Below, piece after piece: positions 12,422-40,573 of a stretch of DNA of 40,573 nucleotides. The DNA is from a virus. The stretch spans positions 1-40,573 of the IMG/VR virus record IMGVR_UViG_3300012347_000097. The stretch is one strand, 5' to 3'. How positions within the stretch are numbered: the stretch's first letter is position 1; each line of letters opens with the position of its first letter. The notes beneath the pieces were generated by a model. It worked only from the letters and a program-made list of their open reading frames with translations, had not been told where the DNA came from and did not search any database. The translations under genes and the position numbers were made by a program.

Positions 12422-13019
12422 CCTGTTCCAGGCTGCATGGGATGAGAGCAAGGGCGATATTGACCTAAGCACAGCCCGTGTAGGAGGTCGCGAGACCAAG
12501 GCTAACCCTAACAAGGAAGACGTAAACTTCTGGCTTGCAGCAGGTCCACGATGGGTAGATGGCTACATTGCTTGGCGCAAGGCTAACCCTCATTGGAAAA
12601 TCTGGACAACACCAGAAGGTGCTAAGGCCATCGAACTCGAACTCAACCCAATTGTGGCTGGTGTTCAAGTCAAGATGGTCATTGACCGCATCTTTGAAGT
12701 TGATGGTCAGTTGGTCATCTGTGACCTTAAGACGTCTCAGAAGACACCCGCTAACACACTCCAACTCGGCTTCTATAAACTAGGAGTCGAACAGACATTC
12801 GGACGTGAGGTTAAGTGGGGTAACTACTACATGGCTCGAGGCTCAGGAGTCTCAGAGTTCGTAGACCTATCAGAGTATACATTTGACAAGATGGAGTATC
12901 TGATAAAACAATTTGACACTGCACGTCGTGCAGGTGTATTCTTACCCAACACAAACAATTGCCAGTACATGTGCGGTTTAACGGACTACTGTCAATTCTC
13001 TACAAAGAAGGAAATCTAA
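12390..13019 (+). CDS. Cas4/RecB-family PD-(D/E)XK exonuclease, C-terminal fragment (209 aa)
   Basis: Catalytic core IDRIFEVDGQLVICDLKTSQK, QLGFY, and the C-terminal cysteine cluster CQYMCGLTDYC. Confidence 0.7.
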   Translation: MNMTAVKTAASLFQAAWDESKGDIDLSTARVGGRETKANPNKEDVNFWLAAGPRWVDGYIAWRKANPHWKIWTTPEGAKAIELELNPIVAGVQVKMVIDRIFEVDGQLVICDLKTSQKTPANTLQLGFYKLGVEQTFGREVKWGNYYMARGSGVSEFVDLSEYTFDKMEYLIKQFDTARRAGVFLPNTNNCQYMCGLTDYCQFSTKKEI

Positions 13020-19987: not shown

Positions 19988-20273
19988 GTTGTGCCTCCAT
20001 TCGTTGCTCTAGGATTGACTTAGTACGTACTGGTACACGTGTATGATTATCATACAGTGCTTTCATAGTTGCTTGCGTTCTTGCCCTGATTTCTTCTAGT
20101 CTATCATATTTCTGCATATTATCCAAAATCTCGTACGCAATACGTCGTGCCTCAATCTTGCCGTAGCCGAAGTTCTCTACGAGGTTATCCTTTATCTTCT
20201 TTACCTTGGGTGGTTCGGCGTAAGCACCTTCGTAGAAGTGCTCAACCTTGCCATTCCTAACTCGTGTTATCAT
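19968..20273 (-). CDS. Hypothetical protein (101 aa)
   Basis: Track ORF. Its 3' end contains palindrome copy 1. Confidence 0.5.
   Translation of the reverse strand: MITRVRNGKVEHFYEGAYAEPPKVKKIKDNLVENFGYGKIEARRIAYEILDNMQKYDRLEEIRARTQATMKALYDNHTRVPVRTKSILEQRMEAQRGNIRV
20040..20056. promoter_or_regulatory. 17-bp palindrome copy 1: TGTATGATTATCATACA
   Basis: Perfect palindrome, 52 bp upstream of the FmdB-like start (19987). Confidence 0.7.
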
Positions 20274-21636: not shown

Positions 21637-21775
21637 AATCCATCTCCTCCAATTCCTTGAGCATAAGTCTAGCATCTGCAATCTTAGTGTTCAATGTATG
21701 ATTATCATACACTCCGTTACTGGATGTAACGTAGATGTAGTCAATCAGCAGGTCGCGTATCTTCTCTATCTCCAT
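21608..21775 (-). CDS. Hypothetical protein (55 aa from MEIEKIRD)
   Basis: TAATG-coupled to the amidotransferase-like gene. Contains palindrome copy 2 in its coding region. Confidence 0.4.
   Translation of the reverse strand: MEIEKIRDLLIDYIYVTSSNGVYDNHTLNTKIADARLMLKELEEMDYERLERKAN
21695..21711. promoter_or_regulatory. 17-bp palindrome copy 2: TGTATGATTATCATACA
   Basis: Perfect palindrome, 58 bp upstream of the ATG at 21636. Confidence 0.7.
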
Positions 21776-22584
21776 TAGAATGTGAACTCCTTCTGTGAAT
21801 ACCACTGGTTACTCTTGGTGTGGTTGGCTGGTACATAGCATAGGCAGGTGTCGCCGTAACTACCTTGGCAGTCGTGGCAAGTGTAGCACATCTCGCAGTA
21901 GTACGGGTTGGCGTCCTCGAACGCTTGAGCACCGCACGCTTGGCAGTCAGCATCTTGGTCAGAGAACGCATCAGGAAACGCAGACTTGACAGGTGAGGCA
22001 GTTGATTCCCATGACCACGTAGACTTCTTGTATGTGGTATTAGACCACCAGATACCGTCATTGTCCCAGTGACCTAACTCCTCATTGACGATATAGCAAT
22101 CGTACTTAGCGGCTGGGTCAAGGGTGAAGATAACTAACTTGTTACCACTAGCCCACTTGCTGACCATGCCGAGTACATTGTCGTCGTCGAGGGCAGAGAC
22201 ACCGCCTATGCTAGGTAGAATATCCTCCGCGAATACTCTAGTATCACTGCGCTTGTCTCCGCCCGCAATCTTAACGTCGAGCACACCGTTGTGCGCTAGA
22301 TAGGTATCGTCACGACCGCCTACCTTGAACGGGTGACAGTTAGCCTCGTTCTTTACACCATGCGTAGCAAAGCGTGCATGGAACATGGCGTACCCGTCTG
22401 GGTATTGCTTGCGTACTTCGAGGAACTCCTTGATTAACTTACGAGCAGACATACTGTGACCCGTCACGATACCGTTGGGTGTAATGATAGCGTAGCCGAA
22501 GCCGTGTGGGTTGTTACATGAGGCACACTCGAGGTCTGCCTTCTTAGGTGTTGAGTTAGGTGAAGCAACTAATAGTAAGCACAT
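21775..22584 (-). CDS. Class-II glutamine-amidotransferase-like Ntn thiol hydrolase with a Cys-rich C-terminal tail (269 aa)
   Basis: N-terminal MC (Cys nucleophile), HARFATHG...NCHPF...LAHNG, and the C-terminal CQAC..CEMC..CHDC..CLC. Confidence 0.75.
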   Translation of the reverse strand: MCLLLVASPNSTPKKADLECASCNNPHGFGYAIITPNGIVTGHSMSARKLIKEFLEVRKQYPDGYAMFHARFATHGVKNEANCHPFKVGGRDDTYLAHNGVLDVKIAGGDKRSDTRVFAEDILPSIGGVSALDDDNVLGMVSKWASGNKLVIFTLDPAAKYDCYIVNEELGHWDNDGIWWSNTTYKKSTWSWESTASPVKSAFPDAFSDQDADCQACGAQAFEDANPYYCEMCYTCHDCQGSYGDTCLCYVPANHTKSNQWYSQKEFTF

Positions 22585-22602
22585 AATTTATCCTTTGGTT
22601 AG

Positions 22603-22619
22603 TGTATGATAATCATACA
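22603..22619. promoter_or_regulatory. 17-bp palindrome copy 3: TGTATGATAATCATACA
   Basis: Perfect palindrome, 18 bp upstream of the amidotransferase-like ATG (22584). It contains the amidoligase stop codon. Confidence 0.7.
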
Positions 22620-23806
22620 GTTGTGAGAGTTGGGATGATGCGGTTGATACGTTCTGTTAGTTCTGGATAGGTCTCTGCATTACTGATGATGTAAGCGATA
22701 AAGTTCTCACGCTTAAGAGCACCATCTTTGATGTCTTGCAGGGAGAGTCGGCGAGTATACTCAACGCTGGCGTGCGCTAGTGAAATCTGTGCCTTGACTA
22801 CGTTCTTGTTGATTGAACTCCTAAAGATACGCATCTCTAGGGTGTGGGCGTTCTGTGTATTGACGGCAGAGTAACGGTCAGAGGCGCGACCATGCTCAAT
22901 CTTATTCTTGAATGACTTGTAAGCAACCCACTTGCGCTCACCGTCGACAACTACCGAGGTGTTGGCTACTACGTCATCATACTTAGCCCAGCGTGCAGAG
23001 TTACGACCTGCTAACTCGGAGAAGAAGTACTCATTAGAGTAGACGAGGTTAAGGAAGCGGTGCATATGAGCACCACCACTAAACCCTGTGCGTGAGATAT
23101 GGATATGTAGACCAGCGGTGCTGGCATCCCATGCTCGCATCTTGTGGACGTCGCGCAGTGTATCTAGTACACCCCATAGTTCATGCGCCTCATTCTGGTA
23201 GTAGTCATGACTCATAGGGTGAGTCACTAACTCCATACCACAGTTGAGAGAGCCATCACTCTTGAGATAGGCGTGGTCGGTATCTTCTAGCATATGAGCA
23301 GTCTCAGCCGCTTGACGTAGTATGGATGTATCGCCATGTGGTGACTCCATCTCTATCTCTATGCCAAAGAATAGACGTTCATCCTTATCGGTAGAGTGGA
23401 ACACGGGGTCAGGGCGGTAACTGTAATCATGAATCTCATGAATACTATCCTCGCAACTGTCGCATCCGTCCACGTTGTACTCGTCGCAGTACTCGCAGTA
23501 GGTTGCATAGTTCTCAGTACATGACTCGCAGAATGACTCACTTCTATCTTGGATATAGATAGTATAGTCGCTACTCCACTCATTACATGAGTCGCAGTAG
23601 TGTGCATAGTAGTCGGTGCAAGCCTCGCACCATAACTGGTCATCTACTGTGGTGTAGTTCTCGTGACCTACGTCGCTCGTAGTCGAACAGCGCTCGCAAG
23701 TTCTGAAACAATCAGAACACGCTAAGCGACCATCTTCTGTTTCGTAAGCGTCATCTTCGGTCAGGCTTGTTGCACATACATCACATTCAAGTGTGTTTTC
23801 GGTCAT
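22613..23806 (-). CDS. Amidoligase (Amidoligase_2 / carboxylate-amine ligase type) with an N-terminal array of eight CxxC pairs (397 aa)
   Basis: The core motifs LFFGIEIEMES and AGLHIHISR match my recollection of the amidoligase family. The N-terminal ~125 aa contain CDVC, CSDC, CERC, CEAC, CDSC, CESC, CEYC and CDSC. Confidence 0.7.
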   Translation of the reverse strand: MTENTLECDVCATSLTEDDAYETEDGRLACSDCFRTCERCSTTSDVGHENYTTVDDQLWCEACTDYYAHYCDSCNEWSSDYTIYIQDRSESFCESCTENYATYCEYCDEYNVDGCDSCEDSIHEIHDYSYRPDPVFHSTDKDERLFFGIEIEMESPHGDTSILRQAAETAHMLEDTDHAYLKSDGSLNCGMELVTHPMSHDYYQNEAHELWGVLDTLRDVHKMRAWDASTAGLHIHISRTGFSGGAHMHRFLNLVYSNEYFFSELAGRNSARWAKYDDVVANTSVVVDGERKWVAYKSFKNKIEHGRASDRYSAVNTQNAHTLEMRIFRSSINKNVVKAQISLAHASVEYTRRLSLQDIKDGALKRENFIAYIISNAETYPELTERINRIIPTLTTV

Positions 23807-24382: not shown

Positions 24383-24386
24383 CCAG

Positions 24387-24451
24387 CGCTTGCCGTTGGA
24401 ATCGAACCAACGCGGGGAACCTTCGCAAGCGGTTACGCCCACCGCAAGGGC
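24387..24451 (-). other. tRNA-like element (perfect T-arm plus acceptor-like stem; no canonical cloverleaf)
   Basis: The - strand reads GTTGG-TTCGATT-CCAAC, flanked by the GCTTGC/GCAAGC stem, with a D-arm-like GCGG-TGGGCGTAA-CCGC upstream. It is only ~65 nt and I could not fold an anticodon arm. Confidence 0.35.
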
Positions 24452-24519
24452 ATAACTTCGACCAACAAGAGAATACTATCTTAGTGCGGTAACTAAGTCA
24501 ATTTACGCGGGAAACTATT

Positions 24520-24851: not shown

Positions 24852-24866
24852 GGTCGGGCGTGTCGC
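24852..24866 (+). repeat. 15-bp direct repeat GGTCGGGCGTGTCGC, copy A
   Basis: Identical to 25800..25814. Lies just beyond the terminator of the 211-aa gene. Confidence 0.8.
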
Positions 24867-24927: not shown

Positions 24928-25563
24928 TTAGGCGTTAGCCTTTGCGCGGGTGTTCTTCTCGATATTGACCAACACGCCGAGGAGGGCGCGGAGGGTGTCG
25001 AGGTCGGCGGTAGTTGCCTCCTTGAGATTCTTCCCTCCGACTCGGCGGATAGCCTCAAGGGAGGTAGCGAGTGCGAGTTCAAGGGTAAGCGGTGCGACCT
25101 TTGGAGAGTTCTTTCCGCCGTTCTTGCGGGCGTTGGTTTGTGTTGGTGATTCTTCTTCTAGTTGCTCAACGTTTGCAACGTTTGCGATTACGGCGCGAGA
25201 TTCCTTGCCATGATTACGGCGGACACGCTCCGCGAGTTTTAGGAGGTCGGCTACTGGCTTATCCTTTGCACCCTCCACGGTGCGGATAATCTCGGCAAGG
25301 ATAGGGAAGTCTTGCGCGTGTGACTTGCGGATAGTTGGGGCAGTTCCGACGGTTGAGGCGATAGCCTCCTGAACGGTGCGGAGGTTGGTTTGTCCGTTGG
25401 TCATGAGGTCGGCGGTGTTGAGGATAAAGGCGAGTTCTCCGTCATGGTTGATGAGGCTTGAGTACTCGGCAGAAATTGTCGCGGTGACTGAATCTGCATA
25501 AGCGGTGAAAGTAGCGTTTTTAACTGACTTTGGAGCGGTGTTCTTTGTTGTCTTTGTTGCCAT
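24928..25563 (-). CDS. Hypothetical protein (211 aa), first gene downstream of the SOS boxes; visibly more G+C-rich than its neighbours
   Basis: Track ORF forming a monocistronic unit between palindrome copy 7/LexA box 1 and its own terminator. No motif recognised. Confidence 0.65.
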   Translation of the reverse strand: MATKTTKNTAPKSVKNATFTAYADSVTATISAEYSSLINHDGELAFILNTADLMTNGQTNLRTVQEAIASTVGTAPTIRKSHAQDFPILAEIIRTVEGAKDKPVADLLKLAERVRRNHGKESRAVIANVANVEQLEEESPTQTNARKNGGKNSPKVAPLTLELALATSLEAIRRVGGKNLKEATTADLDTLRALLGVLVNIEKNTRAKANA

Positions 25564-25659
25564 GATTTTTACATCCTTTGCGGTTAGGTCAGCCCGTTTG
25601 GCTGATGAGAGAACAATACCATCATTCCCGAGATTTCAACACCATTCGCGGGTCGAGTT

Positions 25660-25676
25660 TGTATGATAATCATAAA
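25660..25676. promoter_or_regulatory. 17-bp palindrome copy 7: TGTATGATAATCATAAA (one mismatch), abutting LexA box 1
   Basis: Read directly. It lies 96 bp upstream of the ATG at 25563. Confidence 0.65.
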
Positions 25677-25692
25677 TCGAACAGATGTTCGA
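25677..25692. promoter_or_regulatory. LexA (SOS) box 1: TCGAACAGATGTTCGA
   Basis: Perfect match to the actinobacterial/Gram-positive consensus TCGAAC-N4-GTTCGA. Confidence 0.7.
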
Positions 25693-25799
25693 AAGTCGAT
25701 TTATCGACAATTCCCTATCCCCCTATTTAGTTGAAATTTCAACTACTTTGTTCTCCCTGCGATTATCCCATGAGATGAGGTTACTGCAAAGTAACTTAG

Positions 25800-25814
25800 G
25801 GTCGGGCGTGTCGC
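25800..25814 (+). repeat. 15-bp direct repeat GGTCGGGCGTGTCGC, copy B
   Basis: Identical to 24852..24866. Lies between the hairpin GTTACTGCAAAGTAAC (25780-25795) and LexA box 2. Confidence 0.8.
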
Positions 25815-25821
25815 AGTTCTA

Positions 25822-25837
25822 TCGAACAGATGTTCGT
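25822..25837. promoter_or_regulatory. LexA (SOS) box 2: TCGAACAGATGTTCGT
   Basis: Same 14-bp core CGAACAGATGTTCG as box 1. Confidence 0.65.
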
Positions 25838-25870
25838 GTGACGTGGGTCACATTGCGGAAGGTTGGGAAC

Positions 25871-25967
25871 CTGAGAGTTTCCTGAGAATTATCTGAGAAG
25901 AACGGCTCTAGTTTTGGCTGAGAGATTCCTGAGAAATTCCTGATAGCCCCCCGAGAGTTTGCTGAGG
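25871..25967 (+). repeat. Iteron-like array of CTGAGA-type hexamers at 11-bp phasing (two blocks)
   Basis: Block 1 starts at 25871, 25882 and 25893. Block 2 starts at 25918 and 25929 (CTGAGA), 25940 (CTGATA), 25951 (CCGAGA) and 25962 (CTGAGG). Confidence 0.75.
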
Positions 25968-26055
25968 GGATAGTCACATCATTACAAAAAGTTATAAGCC
26001 GATAATATTTTATTATGTAAAGTAGTTTTGACCCTAGGCATAGTGAATTCGGTCC

Positions 26056-26108
26056 CACCCCCCTCTTATAGTGTCCCATAAAAATTCTCTGTTATATAAG
26101 GGGGGTGA
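26056..26108. repeat. Imperfect inverted repeat CACCCCCCTCTTATA ... TATAAGGGGGGGTG
   Basis: Read directly. The arms are separated by 24 nt of AT-rich sequence. Confidence 0.55.
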
Positions 26109-26114
26109 TTTATA

Positions 26115-26147
26115 AGTCGCCAGAATGCGACTTTTATAAGTTTTTTA
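26115..26147 (+). terminator. Stem-loop AAGTCGC-cagaat-GCGACTT followed by TTATAAGTTTTTT
   Basis: Read directly. This could be a terminator or a small-RNA 3' end. It is flanked by TTATAAG motifs. Confidence 0.35.
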
Positions 26148-26167
26148 CGCTCAAATAAAAATATTTT

Positions 26168-26183
26168 CCGAACTGCTGTTCGG
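26168..26183. promoter_or_regulatory. LexA (SOS) box 3: CCGAACTGCTGTTCGG
   Basis: CGAAC-N4-GTTCG core within a 16-bp palindrome. Confidence 0.6.
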
Positions 26184-26433
26184 TTTTACCCGTTTGAACG
26201 GGTTATCTTATATGTATAAATACATATACGGAGTCGCTCCGTTTAAGACTCCGCTCCTCCTATATAATATATAATTATTTATATATAATGGGATTTCTAT
26301 GCGCCAAACCCAACCGTTAATATAGCGTTTTATAACCACTCCCTTCTCTTCGAAGTTGTAGGTTTTGACCTACGGGAATGCCAGATATTCCGGGATGCGC
26401 CCGCCTCTGTTTAAGGCGGTCTGGCAACTATTA

Positions 26434-26504
26434 TTGGACGTGGCGCAAAGGCAGCGCGTCGGGTTGAAGCCCCGAAGGTGTAGGTTCGAGCCCTGCCGAC
26501 CAAT
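26434..26504 (+). tRNA. tRNA-Phe (GAA)
   Basis: Hand-folded. Acceptor TTGGACG/CGACCAA has one A-A mismatch. D arm GCGC-AAAGGCA-GCGC, anticodon arm TCGGG-TTGAAGC-CCCGA, T arm GTAGG-TTCGAGC-CCTGC. Confidence 0.6.
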
Positions 26505-26548
26505 CCTTTTAGTGCTGACCCAACCACAGTTTGGTGTAGGTACTAGCC

Positions 26549-26577
26549 GCCCCTCATATAGATGGCGAGGGGCTTTT
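26549..26577 (+). terminator. GC-rich hairpin plus TTTT immediately before tRNA-Ser
   Basis: GCCCCTC (26549-55) pairs with GAGGGGC (26567-73), followed by TTTT. Confidence 0.45.
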
Positions 26578-26666
26578 GGAAGAGTGGGTGAGTGGCTAAA
26601 ACCACCTGCTTGCTAAGCAGTCGGGGTTAGTAGCCCCCGCAGGTTCGAATCCTGCCTCTTCCGCCA
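26578..26666 (+). tRNA. tRNA-Ser (GCT), class II with a long variable arm and encoded CCA
   Basis: Acceptor GGAAGAG/CTCTTCC, anticodon loop TTGCTAA, variable arm CGGGG-TTAGTAG-CCCCG, T arm GCAGG-TTCGAAT-CCTGC, then G-CCA. Confidence 0.8.
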
Positions 26667-26694
26667 ACCCCAGTTCCTAGTGTTCTGGGCTTTT

Positions 26695-26765
26695 TGGTTC
26701 TTAGTGTAACGGCAGCACAGCGGCTTCCAAACCCGCTTGTCAAGGTTCGAATCCTTGGGAATCAG
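26695..26765 (+). tRNA. tRNA-Trp (CCA)
   Basis: Acceptor TGGTTCT/GGAATCA has two G-U pairs. D arm GTGT-AACGGCA-GCAC, anticodon loop TTCCAAA with a C-C mismatch at 31-39, T arm CAAGG-TTCGAAT-CCTTG. Confidence 0.65.
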
Positions 26766-26785
26766 CAATTATAGATGGGACAATC

Positions 26786-28654
26786 ATGGGACGCAAGCCT
26801 GGGGTACAATCTGTACCTAAAGACGAGGCGCAAGCCAAAGTCTTAGCCCTACTGGAACAGGGTGCTACTATCACAGCCGCTATGGCCGCTGTTGGTCGTA
26901 ATGACACTACCTTTCGCCAATGGTCTATGGTCAATGCCGACTTCAAGGAGAAGGCTGACAAGGCCCGCCTGGCAGGCAAGGGAATCAAGGCCGACATGGC
27001 CGACCTCAAGAACATCTCATTTGCAGACTTCTCTGAGCAGTTCCTAGGCTCTAAACTTTTCCCTCACCAGTTAAACTGGATTGATATGATTGAGGGCCGC
27101 GAACCTTCCTGGCAGCCAACTGGCATGCGCTATGAGAAGGGCGACCTTGCCCGTGTACTTATTAACGTGCCACCTGAGCATGCTAAGTCCACAACCATTA
27201 CCACCAACTATGTAACCTACCGTGTAGTAACTAACCCTAATATTCGAGTCCTTGTCGTCTCTAAGACGAACAACATGGCTAAGAAGTTTTTAACTGCTAT
27301 TAAGACCCGCCTTGACCATCCTTCATTTATGAAGATGCAAACGGCTTTCGGCCCTAATGGCGGCTATAAGAAGGATGCCACACAGTGGTCTGCTGACAGT
27401 ATCTATCTTGGTACTGGCCGCGACTCTGGTGAGAAGGACCCTACTATCCAGGCCCTAGGTATCCGTTCACAGATTTATGGTGCTCGTGCTGACCTCATCA
27501 TTTTGGATGACGTCGTTATGGACTCCAATGCTCACGACTGGGAAGCCCAGATTGAGTGGATTCAAAAGATGGTTATTACCCGTCTTGGTCGCCACGGTAA
27601 GTTGATTATCGTAGGAACCCGCGTATCCCCAATTGACCTTTATCAGCAACTCCGTGAGCCAATGCACTGGTCTGGTGGCAAGAGCCCCTTTACATATTGC
27701 GCAATGCCCGCAGTGCTTGAATTTGACGAAGACCCAGCCAAATGGAAAACCCTATGGCCTGAATCAGAGCAACAGGAAAACGAACTAGATGAGCAACTCC
27801 CAAATGGGCTATACCCCAAATGGGATGGACCCTCGCTATTTAAGCGCCGCTCTGAGGTCACTCCCTCAACTTGGGCAATGGTTTACCAGCAGGAAGACGT
27901 TATCGAAGATTCCATCTTCTCACCTACCTGTATCGCAGGAAGTGTGCAAGGAGCCAGAAAGCGCGGGCCTCTAAAGCCTGGTGCTATGGGTCATCCTAGA
28001 CACGTTGAAGGTACTTATACAGTTATCGGTCTTGACCCTGCTATGGCAGGTGCTACTGGCGCTGTTGTAGTTACTTACAATAAGGCAGATGGCAAGGTCT
28101 ATGTACTAGATTGCGTCAACATGACCGACCCTAGTCCCGCTAAGATTCAGAATCTTATTCAGGAGTGGGTCGAGAAGTACAAGCCGCAAGAACTGCGCAT
28201 CGAAATTAACGCACACCAGAAGGCTTACGCCCTGGATAATGACTTGAGAGACTACCTAGCCATTCATGGCTGTAGGCTTGAGTCGCACTTTACTGGAAAG
28301 AACAAGTGGGATACATCCTTCGGCGTTGCCTCTATGGCAATGCTCTTTGGTAGTACCCGCGATGGTCGCTTCCAGGATAACAACATTATCGAACTACCAA
28401 GTAACGAAGGCTCTGAGGGTATCAAAACCCTAGTGCAGCAGTTGATTACCTGGAAGGCTGATACCAAGAACGCCACAGATACAGTTATGGCTCTGTGGTT
28501 TGCTATCATCCGTGTTCGTGAACTGATGCAGCATTCTTCTCACATGGCTCAGTACCAGAACAACAGGTGGGCCACTAGAGCACAACGCTCAACGCGTGGC
28601 TCAATCAATTTAGATGAAGCATTTGCCGACCAATGGGCAGATAACTACGGATAA
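26786..28654 (+). CDS. terL: Terminase large subunit with an N-terminal HTH-like extension (622 aa)
   Basis: Walker A-like NVPPEHAKST, Walker B ADLIILDDV and the nuclease-domain motif VIGLDPA. The first ~70 aa (LLEQGATITAAMAAVGRNDTTFRQW) look like a small-terminase/HTH module. Confidence 0.85.
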   Translation: MGRKPGVQSVPKDEAQAKVLALLEQGATITAAMAAVGRNDTTFRQWSMVNADFKEKADKARLAGKGIKADMADLKNISFADFSEQFLGSKLFPHQLNWIDMIEGREPSWQPTGMRYEKGDLARVLINVPPEHAKSTTITTNYVTYRVVTNPNIRVLVVSKTNNMAKKFLTAIKTRLDHPSFMKMQTAFGPNGGYKKDATQWSADSIYLGTGRDSGEKDPTIQALGIRSQIYGARADLIILDDVVMDSNAHDWEAQIEWIQKMVITRLGRHGKLIIVGTRVSPIDLYQQLREPMHWSGGKSPFTYCAMPAVLEFDEDPAKWKTLWPESEQQENELDEQLPNGLYPKWDGPSLFKRRSEVTPSTWAMVYQQEDVIEDSIFSPTCIAGSVQGARKRGPLKPGAMGHPRHVEGTYTVIGLDPAMAGATGAVVVTYNKADGKVYVLDCVNMTDPSPAKIQNLIQEWVEKYKPQELRIEINAHQKAYALDNDLRDYLAIHGCRLESHFTGKNKWDTSFGVASMAMLFGSTRDGRFQDNNIIELPSNEGSEGIKTLVQQLITWKADTKNATDTVMALWFAIIRVRELMQHSSHMAQYQNNRWATRAQRSTRGSINLDEAFADQWADNYG

Positions 28655-31425: not shown

Positions 31426-34400
31426 TGACGGCGCTTGAGAGACTCGGAGAAATCCAGGCAAACTTCAAAAGAAGCGCTGGCGGAACAAATCCCGCACTCA
31501 ATAAGGACGGAAGAGTTCCTTTCGGTCCTACACTAGATATCGCACAGGGCTTGCCACGCAACCCTCAGTCATTTAATGACCAAATTGAGGACTGGCGTCA
31601 GTCAGCAACCAAGGCTGTTGGTGAAAACCTAGGAACTGGTAAGGCTATTGGAGTTTCAGCAGCCATTACGCCAGTTCTTCCTGTACTTGGCGTGCCACTT
31701 TTAACTATTAACACTGCAGCAATGGGCTTAACAGCCCTTGATAAGAAGACAGATGGTAAGACATCTAAGATTCTTATGGCTGGAGCCAAGAACGTACGTT
31801 CTAACTACGCATTCGTAGCCGATGTTGCAAAGCATGACGCTGCAATGGGCTTTCTTGCTACACTTACAATGGTTGCTGGTGGTACTCTTGGTGCTATTGG
31901 TGGCTTTGCAGTAGCAGGTCCAGCAGGAGCATTCGCTGGCGCAGCACTTGGTGTCGCTATTGCTGGTAAGGCAGAGCGTGACATAGCAGAAACTGGCGCG
32001 CTTGGCAAGTCTTTAGAGATGTCAGCCAAGTTGTCGGAGTCTGCAGCAGGTCAAGAGACCTATAACTTCGGTCGTGACTCAGTTCACCTTGCATCAAAGA
32101 TTACTGGATGGCAGACACTCGGAGATACCTCTAAGGGTATTGGAGCAGTCACCTCTGGTCTTATCAACTTTGGTTTCGAATCAGCAGTTGCACCTGACAT
32201 TAAGGCTGTTAGCCTTGGCGGTAAGGTAGTTCGTCAGTCACTTGTTGGTGGCATCACGCCTCCTTTGGCTGGCGTTGTTGCTAAGAAGACTGCGCAATCA
32301 TCGTTCGGTGTCGAACGTATAGGAAGGCGTCTTCAAGAAGATGTAGACCTTCTTAAGGCAACTGCTGCTGGCGAGAAGACATCATATACACCTGTATTCG
32401 AGTTCTACCGTAACAATGACGCTGCTACAATTCTCGAGCGCGTCGAGTTCCGTAACAATGAGTACGGCCAGATTGGCGCTAACCTTGTAGCAGGCAAGTC
32501 CGATGAAGTTATCAGCCTTGTTCTTCGCATCGGTCGTGGTGACAAGACAGCAATCGATGAGATTGCAGTCAAGCATCCAGCAACATTTGCTGAGATTCTT
32601 CGCTATGAAGGCATCCTAGATACAGTCGCACAGACTGGCACAGGACGTATCTCATACGGCTTTACTCGCGCCAACAAAGAGACTATTGTTCTCTCTAAGA
32701 AGTTGCCTGACAACACAGCAATCATCGAAGCAGAAATTGGCGACCTTCGTAGCCAGTATTCATGGCTCGATAAGTCACTCAAGTTGGATAGCGCACTCCA
32801 GGAGCGTACAGTATCTGTATTCCCAAGCGTTGAGAAGTTCCGTAATGACATTGCGCTACAGCGTGCCAACAACAAGTTGTCTAATACTGCAGGAGATATC
32901 ACTACACGTGAGACGCTCGCTGGCAATGTAGTACAAAAACTTTACCAGAAGAGCCCACTATCTGTCCCAATCCGTTGGATTGAACGCAGAACAGATGATG
33001 CTCCTCACGCTACAGTAAACTTTAATGACTCTATCCAGAGTGCAACTCGTGTACGTACAACAATGCGTGCTACAGTTGATAACAAGGTACTTCCTGGTAT
33101 TGAGGCTAAGGCTCTCTATGACGAGTTTATTGGCGCTAAGACAGAAGGTGCTAAGTTAGCAGCCGTTGAGAAGATTAACTCACGTGTTGTTGAGCAGGTA
33201 GCCAACAAGTATGGCGTACCATCAAGCATCAAAGACCTAGTTCTTAACGAGTACATTAACCTTACAAAGCGTAACAAGGCCAAGGCTCAAGCAGCCCAGG
33301 CCAAGAATCAAGCCTACATGATTGATGACGCAGGTGAGGTCGTAGTAGACCCACAACTCATCTCCCAACTGGCTAACGGTTCTTACCTTGTAGATGTCGC
33401 ACTCTTTGACAAAGCATTTGCTCGCTACTCAAAGCGTATGGGCGAGGAAGCAAGCCTTCCAGTCAATACTGCTATGATGGGTAAGGTAGTTCTAGATGAG
33501 TTTAACTCAATCTGGCGTTACTTTACTCTTGCGCGTACAGGCTTCCCAATCAACGTTATGCGTGACTCTACGCTACGTACTTGGGGCGATGGAGCCATGT
33601 TCTACTCACTCAAGGCACTTGGTGAGCAGTCAATGGAAGCAATCGTCAATAAGTCATCACGTGTCAGCGATATGCGTCGTTTTGGTGAGGGTATCCTTGA
33701 CCCAAAGAAAAACATTCGCAAGATTCGCACACAGATTGAACTTTACGAAAACTCTTTAGGTGCTGCAAAGCAAGCACTCAAGAATGAGAAGTATGACCCA
33801 CTTAAGCCACCTAAGGACATGTCTCCTGAGTTGACTCGTTTATTGGATTATACCAACAAGATTGAGAAGACTGTTGCAGAACTTCGTCGTCAAGAAAACG
33901 CAGTGATTCAAGGTATTGATTCAAAGCGCGTAGGACGCGATAAGATTACAGTTGAAGGATACAACTTCCCAGCAGCCTTCTCAGGCCGCTTTGGTGATAT
34001 CAGTTTCCAGAAGTTGCGTGGTAAGGATGACATTCGTGGCCTTCTTGCTTCCGTAAAGGAACTCGAAGTAGCCTCTGTTCGTCGCGACCGTACTGGTGGC
34101 CATGCGATTAAGGCTGTTGAAAACGAGCAACTTCACATTAAGTCATGGGATAACGTTCTAAACAACATCCTTCGTAACGACCCTGTATCACGTGAGATTA
34201 TGTCTCGCAATGTGAAGGGCCTCTCGCCTGCACAGGTAGAGAAGGAAATCGTTGATTGGATTCGTAGCCCTAAGTCTGGCGATATTGTAGAGCGCTTTGG
34301 ATATGATGCCAAGTTAAACCGTAGTCTTCGCTACAGTGACGCTAAGGTAATCTACCAGCGCGCTCTTGCAGCGCTTAACCAGTTTGCCCCAGATATCAAG

Positions 34401-39777: not shown

Positions 39778-40573
39778 ATGGCTACACAGTTTACATCAAC
39801 TGATTCTGCTTCCCTCGGCGGAACAGCAGGTAGCGCAGGTCTAGTACAGAAGGCGTACGATAAGTATATCGAATTCGCTCTTCGTGACGAACCACTTATT
39901 CGTTCAGTAGCAGACAAGCGCCCAGTTTCCCCAACCAACAACGGTAACGTAGTTGTTCTCCAGAAGCACGCAGACCTCGCACTTGCGACAACTGCTCTCA
40001 CAGAGACATCTGACATTGACGGCGTTGCAGTTGGAACACCAACATCAGTAACAATCACAATGCAGGAGTTCGGTAACGCTACAACAAACACACGTGCGTT
40101 GAAGTTGTTCTCACTCTCAAACGTTGACCCAGATATCGTTACACTTATGGCACGTAACCAGGCAGATTCAATCGACGCACTTGCTATGACAGCACTTCGC
40201 GGCGGTACAAACGTAATCTACTCAGGTGCTACAGCAACATCTACAGCAACTATCACAGCAGCAGCAACAATCTCTACAGCGAACATCGCTAAGGCAGTTG
40301 CTAAACTTCGTGGTAACAAGGCATCAGGCAAGCGTGGTCAGGAGTACTGGGCTGGAATTCACCCAGACGTTGCTCACGACCTCATGCTTGAGGCAACAGC
40401 CGCAGGCTGGGTTGTTCCAAACGCATACGGTATCTCACAGGACCGTATCTGGGCTGGAGAAGTTGGCCGCTACAAGGGTGCATACTTCATCGAGTCACCA
40501 CGTCTCTACTCAGCAACAGACGGTGCTTCATCTGCAAAGGTGTACCGCACAATCATCGCTGGTAAGCAGGCAC
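39778..40573 (+). CDS. Major capsid protein, 5' portion (open to the window end; continues at 56..213)
   Basis: ATG 6 nt after TGGAGGTG. The frame stays open to the end of the window and is in frame with 22..213 through the 55-bp overlap. Ala/Thr-rich composition typical of capsid proteins. Confidence 0.75.
   Translation, partial: MATQFTSTDSASLGGTAGSAGLVQKAYDKYIEFALRDEPLIRSVADKRPVSPTNNGNVVVLQKHADLALATTALTETSDIDGVAVGTPTSVTITMQEFGNATTNTRALKLFSLSNVDPDIVTLMARNQADSIDALAMTALRGGTNVIYSGATATSTATITAAATISTANIAKAVAKLRGNKASGKRGQEYWAGIHPDVAHDLMLEATAAGWVVPNAYGISQDRIWAGEVGRYKGAYFIESPRLYSATDGASSAKVYRTIIAGKQA
40519..40573. repeat. 55-bp terminal overlap, identical to 1..55
   Basis: Direct comparison of the two ends. 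Confidence 0.95.

Follow-up and report, generated by a model that had tools for sequence, protein, structure and literature searches.

Copies of the host recA operator beside an accessory-gene promoter in a phage of freshwater Nanopelagicales: candidate LexA sites

Does a phage in which no repressor or integrase is recognised place part of its transcription under the DNA-damage (SOS) response of its host? The question is raised by the viral record IMGVR_UViG_3300012347_000097, which was analysed over its whole length of 40,573 nucleotides (nt), here called the window. A first-pass annotation, made from the letters alone, had pointed to three sites resembling the operator of the host SOS regulator LexA in a non-coding region of about 870 bp. 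The window has exactly three matches to the pattern CGAAC-N4-GTTCG (at 25678, 25823 and 26169; boxes 1, 2 and 3), every one of them inside the stretch 25678-26182 of a gap of 870 bp (25564-26433) that separates a leftward gene for a protein of 211 amino acids, gp211, from a tRNA-Phe gene starting at 26434. By chance 0.02 matches would be expected, and none of 100 shuffles that preserved dinucleotides gave three. The coding sequence of the window contains no match at all, and relaxing the pattern to GAAC-N4-GTTC adds a single one, which is coding, at 31790; the described location of the sites is thus correct, and the motif is not equally frequent in genes. The three boxes differ in quality. Over the 14 specified positions of TCGAACANNTGTTCGA, mismatches number zero in box 1, one in box 2 and three in box 3, a level at which a coding hit at 12787 scores the same as box 3 and 1.6 hits are expected by chance. 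Similarly, box 1 fits all 12 specified positions of the 16-mer TCGAAC-N4-GTTCGA and box 2 fits 11.

The host whose regulators matter here could be assigned through the relatives of the phage. The 55 nt at positions 1-55 recur at 40519-40573, an assembly overlap which indicates that the genome is complete and either circular or circularly permuted, with a length of about 40.5 kb (~40,518 bp) and a GC content of about 47-48%. Its structural genes include those for terminase, portal, protease and tail proteins, and it also encodes a glycosyltransferase and a phage sigma factor. A rightward replication block comprises exonuclease, DnaB-like helicase, primase and RusA genes (helicase, primase and exonuclease at 12.4-15.8 kb), and a leftward accessory block comprises WhiB, an Rpf-like transglycosylase, and an amidoligase paired with a glutamine-amidotransferase-like protein. 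The TerL protein is 76% identical to those of OX376640 and OX376641, which are the Planktophila phages LanE43AprE7 (E7) and LanE43AprF5 (F5). These were the first cultured phages of 'Ca. Nanopelagicales' and lyse their host, which has a GC content of 46.5% (PMC10202952). Given this kinship of TerL, the host is almost certainly a Nanopelagicales (acI) actinobacterium; the WhiB gene also counts for an actinobacterial host, as the first-pass annotation had presumed. At least 599 IMG/VR contigs encode a relative, with TerL 77-80% identical in the 80 that were retrieved, and a DNA-similarity search for the nearest named phages returned only tRNA matches plus E7 and F5. As far as is known the family is lytic, and we judge the lifestyle of the window phage by analogy with its cultured relatives E7 and F5.

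We compared the boxes with the SOS operator of the presumed host. Using the RecA protein of host strain LanE-43 (supplement of PMC10202952) as the query, we fetched recA loci from reference genomes, among them six from Nanopelagicales (L083-L088; RecA 87-95% identical, GC 46-50%). Each of the six contains one CGAAC-N4-GTTCG match, located 143-210 nt upstream of recA, and no second match in the 3-21 kb of the locus. The Nanopelagicales recA box reads TTCGAACAGATGTTCG followed by G or T (TTCGAACAGATGTTCGG or TTCGAACAGATGTTCGT) in five loci and TTCGAACAAATGTTCGG in the sixth. The 15-mer of boxes 1 and 2, TCGAACAGATGTTCG, is identical to this recA box, and the phage region and the host recA loci share no other extended stretch. 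Capture of a host recA promoter fragment by the phage was considered and rejected, the similarity being limited to the 15-16-nt box itself. The consensus for LexA of Mycobacterium tuberculosis is TCGAAC(N4)GTTCGA (PMC3381160). The same type of box is also present at other actinobacterial recA loci retrieved with the LanE-43 RecA. Because boxes 1 and 2 match, base for base, the operator that precedes host recA, they are very probably real host LexA sites, and we consider it likely that they bind LexA.

The host loci are informative in their own right. At four of the six Nanopelagicales recA loci, the box lies directly after a promoter of the form TTGTCAGTG-N8-TACCTT, that is, TTGTCA(G/T)(T/C)(G/A)-N8-TACCTT, about 140-230 nt upstream of recA, which we take to be the mycobacterial 'RecA-NDp' promoter type. 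This arrangement suggests that acI recA is under dual control, LexA-dependent and LexA-independent, as in mycobacteria, for which the RecA-NDp class is named in PMC3381160. Our literature search found no paper describing a canonical SOS box in Nanopelagicales, and the recA box appears to be the first, albeit indirect, evidence for one.

The relatives allowed the inverted CGAAC/GTTCG arms to be compared across the family (loci are designated here by handles such as L163). Matches with the 4-nt spacer number 27 in 734 kb of phage loci, where 0.7 would be expected, an enrichment of approximately 40-fold. The arms split cleanly into two classes. Class A, which includes boxes 1 and 2, has 25 occurrences with 20 distinct sequences, a spacer of 4 nt in 25/25, and the consensus T-CGAAC-A-NN-T-GTTCG-A. 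At the four positions lying outside the search pattern, the 20 distinct boxes have the flanking T/A in 35/40 half-sites and the inner A/T in 38/40; these unsearched positions fit the M. tuberculosis consensus and therefore count for the LexA reading. Several relatives carry the same box core in either orientation (AGAT or ATCT).

Class B, which includes box 3, has arms of the form CCGAAC...GTTCGG, flanked by C/G rather than T/A and usually followed by TTTTA. Its loop measures 3 nt in 14 loci, 5 nt in another 14, and 4 nt only in the window, L168 and L171, and the loop sequence is free to vary. In L174 the arms read GCGAAC...GTTCGC, a compensatory swap of the outer pair from C-G to G-C, and in L175 and L176 the left arm is gone. 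LexA requires constant half-site spacing. Since the class B loops vary in length, we regard box 3 as a false positive and not a LexA site, and of the three LexA boxes originally proposed only the two that are identical to the host recA box are retained. Box 3 is instead the first hairpin of a conserved four-hairpin array, which also holds a promoter-like TTGAAC-17-TAAATA and is situated just upstream of the late tRNA/terminase block. Hairpin 2 of this array shows a compensatory change from CCCGT/ACGGG to CCTGT/ACAGG, and the array includes the near-invariant ACGGAGTCGCTCCGTTTAAGACTCCGCTCC. In IMG/VR, many of the family's contigs stop no more than a few hundred nt from this region. The array may act as a late promoter or leader, as a packaging site, or as a small RNA.

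Box 3 illustrates that such arms can be purely structural, and a terminator scan picks up box 1 on the minus strand, where it would form a weak hairpin with a T-rich tail behind it. Boxes 1 and 2 might by the same token have arisen by chance or be structural hairpins, without any part in regulation, an explanation that we find scarcely credible in view of the spacer that is constant in 25/25, the inner and flanking bases that fit the LexA consensus, the identity of the 15-mer to the host recA box, and the roughly 40-fold enrichment.

What might box 1 control? The leftward block contains seven copies of a 13-mer palindrome, TATGAT(A/T)ATCATA (at 20042, 21697, 22605, 23832, 24368, 24684 and 25662), which is confined to this block, each copy lying about 20-100 nt upstream of a leftward start codon. 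The full extent of the palindrome is 17 bp, TG-TATGAT(A/T)ATCATA-CA, and it is conserved beyond the needs of a -10 element. From these features it is probably a promoter combined with an operator for a dimeric regulator. Reading along the minus strand, the order is box 1, 3 nt, TATGATTATCATA, about 100 nt, and the gp211 start codon; if TATGAT is the -10 element, then the core of box 1 would span approximately -16 to -29. Closer relatives were gathered through gp211 homologues in a protein database, together with their contigs, and through a composite DNA pattern; a search for gp211 relatives in IMG/VR by peptide patterns gave none that was confirmed. In nine lineages, the box adjoins TATGATNATCATA, the promoter palindrome of the first leftward gene, at a distance of 0-6 nt (0 in L170, L171 and L175; 3 in the window; 4 in L166 and L168; 5 in L169 and L176; 6 in L164/L165). 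The sequence comparison thus supports the earlier suggestion that box 1 occupies a repressor position at a palindrome promoter, an arrangement kept in these relatives.

The gene downstream gives few clues. Homologues of gp211 occupy the same position in 24 of 82 phage loci, and the box stays perfect while gp211 identity falls to 25-46% in the remoter box-bearing relatives. Profile searches of gp211 against Pfam, PHROG and PDB gave no match, and an AlphaFold2 model (pLDDT 75) submitted to Foldseek gave no match below E = 0.05 in PDB or BFVD.

Together, these observations lead us to propose that boxes 1 and 2 are probably operators of the Nanopelagicales LexA and that they time the expression of gp211 to the SOS response, the likeliest role being SOS-timed expression of one gene or operon beside an origin-like region. 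In an undamaged cell, LexA bound at boxes 1 and 2 would keep the gp211 promoter off or low, with LexA at box 1 blocking RNA polymerase. Upon ultraviolet (UV) irradiation, other DNA damage, or damage signals from the infection itself, RecA-stimulated self-cleavage of LexA would free the promoter. Box 2 and the adjacent CRP-like palindrome would probably form a composite site at the edge of an iteron array, serving a second upstream promoter or the access of an activator.

Several considerations weigh against this proposal. LexA repression of an early gene brings a lytic phage no obvious benefit. The match to the host recA box, the strict spacing, the conservation and the placement beside the palindrome are observed; LexA binding, the promoter role of the palindrome and its assignment to gp211, the direction of regulation and the function of gp211 are inferred from sequence. 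The presence of LexA in the host is itself inferred from the conserved recA box: no lexA gene was found within 10 kb of recA in the retrieved Nanopelagicales loci or in the part of the LanE-43 annotation that was searched, and a literature search found no statement on lexA in Nanopelagicales. Box 2 overlaps no recognisable core promoter in a consensus scan. Finally, the boxes are distributed patchily. Of the 54 relatives in which TerL is preceded by 900 nt or more of sequence, 13 have a class A box; E7 and F5 have none. Both boxes are absent from L163, whose gp211 is 80% identical and whose flanks are near-identical, and which has unrelated sequence in place of box 1 and extra iterons in place of box 2. 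Box 1 is missing from L174, and 15 further relatives have the gp211 gene and no box. Because they are absent from E7, F5, L163 and these 15 gp211-bearing relatives, the boxes are dispensable. Conservation among related phages, a check suggested at first pass, extends to the nine lineages with a box-palindrome pair but is patchy and does not span the family.

The same distribution bears on who reads the sites. A protein other than LexA could bind them, for example gp211 regulating its own gene, or they could be decoys that titrate LexA during replication and so turn on host SOS genes to the advantage of the phage. The uncharacterised gp211 is indeed encoded beside the sites, and once genome copies are numerous, the two perfect boxes on each would amount to many sites. 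On the other hand, many relatives have gp211 without a box, L075 has a box with no adjacent gp211, the site is identical to the host recA operator, and a decoy could work at any distance from a promoter element. We consider both variants very unlikely.

A broader role for host LexA was raised at first pass, namely that the gap is a main control region from which the damage response gates the early or accessory programme, possibly in a LexA-dependent pseudolysogeny or carrier state. In its strongest form, host LexA would replace a phage repressor, hold the whole early and accessory programme off, and maintain a pseudolysogenic or carrier state, as in the Bacillus phage GIL01, until SOS induction ends it. 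The initial remark that the phage has no recognisable repressor or integrase was accurate: among the genes of the complete circular genome, we recognised no integrase, no CI-like or helix-turn-helix repressor and no partition protein. A LexA homologue was likewise not detected in the window or in any phage locus by tblastn with M. tuberculosis and Bacillus subtilis LexA sequences, a search that finds LexA in five bacterial loci; a small LexA partner resembling gp7 of GIL01 could escape sequence-based detection of this kind. The lack of a CI-like repressor and integrase from a complete circular genome is what such a scheme predicts, and the boxes lie beside origin-like iterons and before the adjacent gene, much as the P1 promoter of GIL01 controls replication genes (PMC6182141). 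However, only one of the seven palindrome promoters is boxed, and the helicase, primase and exonuclease genes lie in the other, rightward block, which has no box. Furthermore, the cultured E7 and F5 lyse their host and lack boxes, the close relative L163 lacks both, and neither a LexA homologue nor partition functions were detected. We therefore regard replacement of a repressor by LexA as quite unlikely, and found nothing in support of pseudolysogeny or a carrier state. With six other copies of the promoter palindrome unboxed, the evidence does not support the gap as the main control region; gating by host damage signalling is probable for one gene or operon and quite unlikely for the early or accessory programme as a whole. 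From its distribution, LexA control looks like a mobile accessory module, often gained and lost in a lytic family, and no master switch or substitute for CI.

The surroundings of box 2 point to additional inputs. It abuts a palindrome of the CRP/GlxR type, TGTGA-N6-TCACA, a second example of which occurs in the window at 2380-2395. Of the 54 relatives whose sequence reaches 900 nt or more upstream of TerL, 42 have palindromes of this type there, often TGTGAnnTAnnTCACA, and so do E7 and F5. Such palindromes are far commoner among the relatives than LexA boxes; none was found in 79 kb of host recA loci. The composite of a box with TGTGAC-N4-GTCACA recurs in L168, L174, L037 and L047. The CRP-like palindromes may be bound by a further regulator of the host or by one that the phage encodes. 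A promoter scan found fewer promoter-like sites than in shuffled sequence, and the sole match near box 2 is the sigma-70-like one listed in Table 1.

Beyond the CRP-like palindrome lie the iterons and AT-rich DNA that give the region its origin-like character. At the same place, relatives (e.g., L047, L058, L074, L075, L175 and L176) have iterons and/or three to four perfect TTATCCACA DnaA boxes, and by its motifs 25871-25965 looks like a replication origin at which the use of host DnaA varies with the lineage. The elements keep one order in all lineages: gp211 promoter, box, then iterons and/or DnaA-box clusters, with AT-rich DNA beyond. This constant order, and the position of box 2 at the edge of the iteron array and outside any recognisable core promoter, would also be expected if LexA modulated origin firing, or the transcription that activates the origin, and thereby coupled replication to the damage state of the cell. 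Yet the origin is assigned by motif content alone, and the tight coupling of 0-6 nt is with the promoter palindrome and not with the iterons. No case of LexA acting at an origin itself is known to us, and overall we think a role in replication unlikely, if somewhat less so than replacement of a repressor.

SOS-timed expression of gp211 remains the reading that we favour, and a more speculative extension of it takes in the CRP-like sites. Here, a strictly lytic phage would read both LexA, reporting DNA damage such as that caused by UV in sunlight, and a CRP-like sensor, and would thereby possess a repressor-less switch for 'lytic deferment' or pseudolysogeny. With the operators packed beside the origin and the first accessory promoter, infection might be deferred or accelerated according to the state of the host. 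We put forward this two-sensor scheme as a long shot.

Table 1. Features in and around the non-coding gap between gp211 and tRNA-Phe, in window coordinates.
Feature	Position	Strand	Sequence or description
gp211	24928..25563	-	First gene of the leftward block, downstream of box 1; all-alpha protein
Palindrome copy 7	25662..25674	-	TATGAT(A/T)ATCATA; presumed -10 element and operator of the gp211 promoter
Candidate LexA box 1	25677..25692	.	TCGAACAGATGTTCGA; full match to the 16-mer SOS box of actinobacteria, separated by 3 nt from palindrome copy 7
Flanking palindrome	25695..25708	.	GTCGATTTATCGAC; flanks box 1 on the side away from the promoter
Sigma-70-like match	25762..25790	-	TTTGCA-17-GATAAT with upstream TG; 32 nt downstream of box 2, consensus match only
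Candidate LexA box 2	25822..25837	.	TCGAACAGATGTTCGT; shares 1 nt with the abutting CRP-like palindrome
CRP/GlxR-type palindrome	25837..25852	.	TGTGACGTGGGTCACA; TGTGA-N6-TCACA
Origin-like region	25871..25965	.	CTGAGA iterons in ~11-nt phase, then AT-rich DNA
'Box 3'	26168..26183	+	CCGAACTGCTGTTCGG; hairpin 1 of the four-hairpin element, judged not to be a LexA site
Four-hairpin array	26168..26253	+	Minimum free energy -33.1 kcal/mol, z = -5.2; sequence almost unchanged throughout the family

The gap holds further repeated elements. The palindrome GTCGATTTATCGAC is kept beside the box in L164, L166, L168 and L169, and is also present well outside the box-bearing lineages. Between boxes 1 and 2, at 25729-25744, is another palindrome, AGTTGAA-NN-TTCAACT, with a variable centre. 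The sequence GTCGGGCGTGTCGC stands on both sides of gp211 (25801-25814 and 24853-24866), and its 13-nt core, GTCGGGCGTGTCG, occurs 15 times in the phage loci against 0.02 expected; a shorter version, CGACACGC, is found upstream of the -35 element of host recA. These repeats may mark a recombination boundary or represent another operator. An Rfam search of 25400-26900 returned three tRNAs only. Open reading frames within the gap differ among relatives and run through iterons and AT-rich DNA, and were therefore judged spurious. One of them, a possible hidden gene for 86 amino acids (25819-26079, minus strand), reads through the iterons, a LexA box and the CRP-like site; it was rejected because its limits differ in every relative.

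Two observations concern the leftward block. The Amidoligase_2 and glutamine-amidotransferase-like genes (21775-23806, minus strand) are kept as a pair in relatives L164-L172 and may have a role in the modification of a peptide or metabolite. In addition, ARAGORN reports an 85-nt tRNA-Arg(gcg) at 24386-24470 (minus strand), shortly before a palindrome copy when read along its own strand; with its anticodon at the unusual position 26, this call looks doubtful.

Mobile elements are well known to exploit host LexA, and the documented phage cases cited here are temperate. In the window, perfect copies of the host recA operator lie beside what is probably an early promoter, in a phage with lytic cultured relatives. 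The hosts, 'Ca. Nanopelagicales', are the most numerous bacteria in lakes. Should the boxes work as proposed, the expression of phage genes in surface waters would hinge on damage to host DNA, for instance by UV, and this would affect models of freshwater infection dynamics, day-night cycles and viral lysis. If the two-sensor deferment scheme were also true, a repressor-less switch would be operating in nature on a very large scale. The boxes are present, moved or absent among near-identical genomes, and these genomes provide natural controls for the contribution of the module.

Among known systems, boxes 1 and 2 resemble the actinobacterial SOS boxes of the M. tuberculosis LexA regulon (PMC3381160) in sequence, in the 4-nt spacer and in their promoter-proximal, non-coding location. 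They differ in lying on a phage genome and in being known from sequence, and box 3 shares only the 5-nt arms. In the Bacillus tectivirus GIL01, host LexA together with the phage proteins gp7 and gp6 controls the lytic switch (PMC4551915, PMC6182141). Like GIL01, the window phage has no recognised CI-type repressor and has several candidate host SOS boxes of the Gram-positive type at a presumed early promoter near putative replication functions. GIL01, however, is temperate, persists as a linear plasmid, and encodes a co-factor of LexA as well as a homologue of it. In the window phage, by comparison, neither signs of temperate or plasmid-like persistence nor a LexA partner or homologue were found, its cultured relatives lyse their host, a single promoter among seven of the kind is boxed, and close relatives dispense with the boxes. 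For Streptomyces tectiviruses, a study that searched for LexA boxes found none (PMC6950372), and our literature search found no report of LexA boxes in actinophages of the present kind.

A single phage gene under host LexA, expressed only upon DNA damage, would recall the LexA-controlled antirepressor or regulator genes of temperate phages such as 186 (Tum), CTXphi and SPC32H (reviewed by Fornelos et al. 2016, cited in PMC9437464). Those phages are lysogenic and the induced protein has a repressor as its target, whereas none was detected in the window, and gp211 has no similarity to known antirepressors. Closer parallels come from virulent phages that co-opt host regulators, namely phi29 with Spo0A and the phages of Alphaproteobacteria in which CtrA is linked to 'lytic deferment' (PMC9437464). 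As in these systems, an apparently virulent phage has conserved promoter-associated sites for a master regulator of its host, through which its programme would be linked to the physiology of the cell, and such sites are shared, though patchily, by related virulent phages; here the regulator would be LexA, with far fewer sites that are carried by only a subset of the family. Conceptually, this use of host master regulators by virulent phages is the closest known counterpart to the arrangement described herein.

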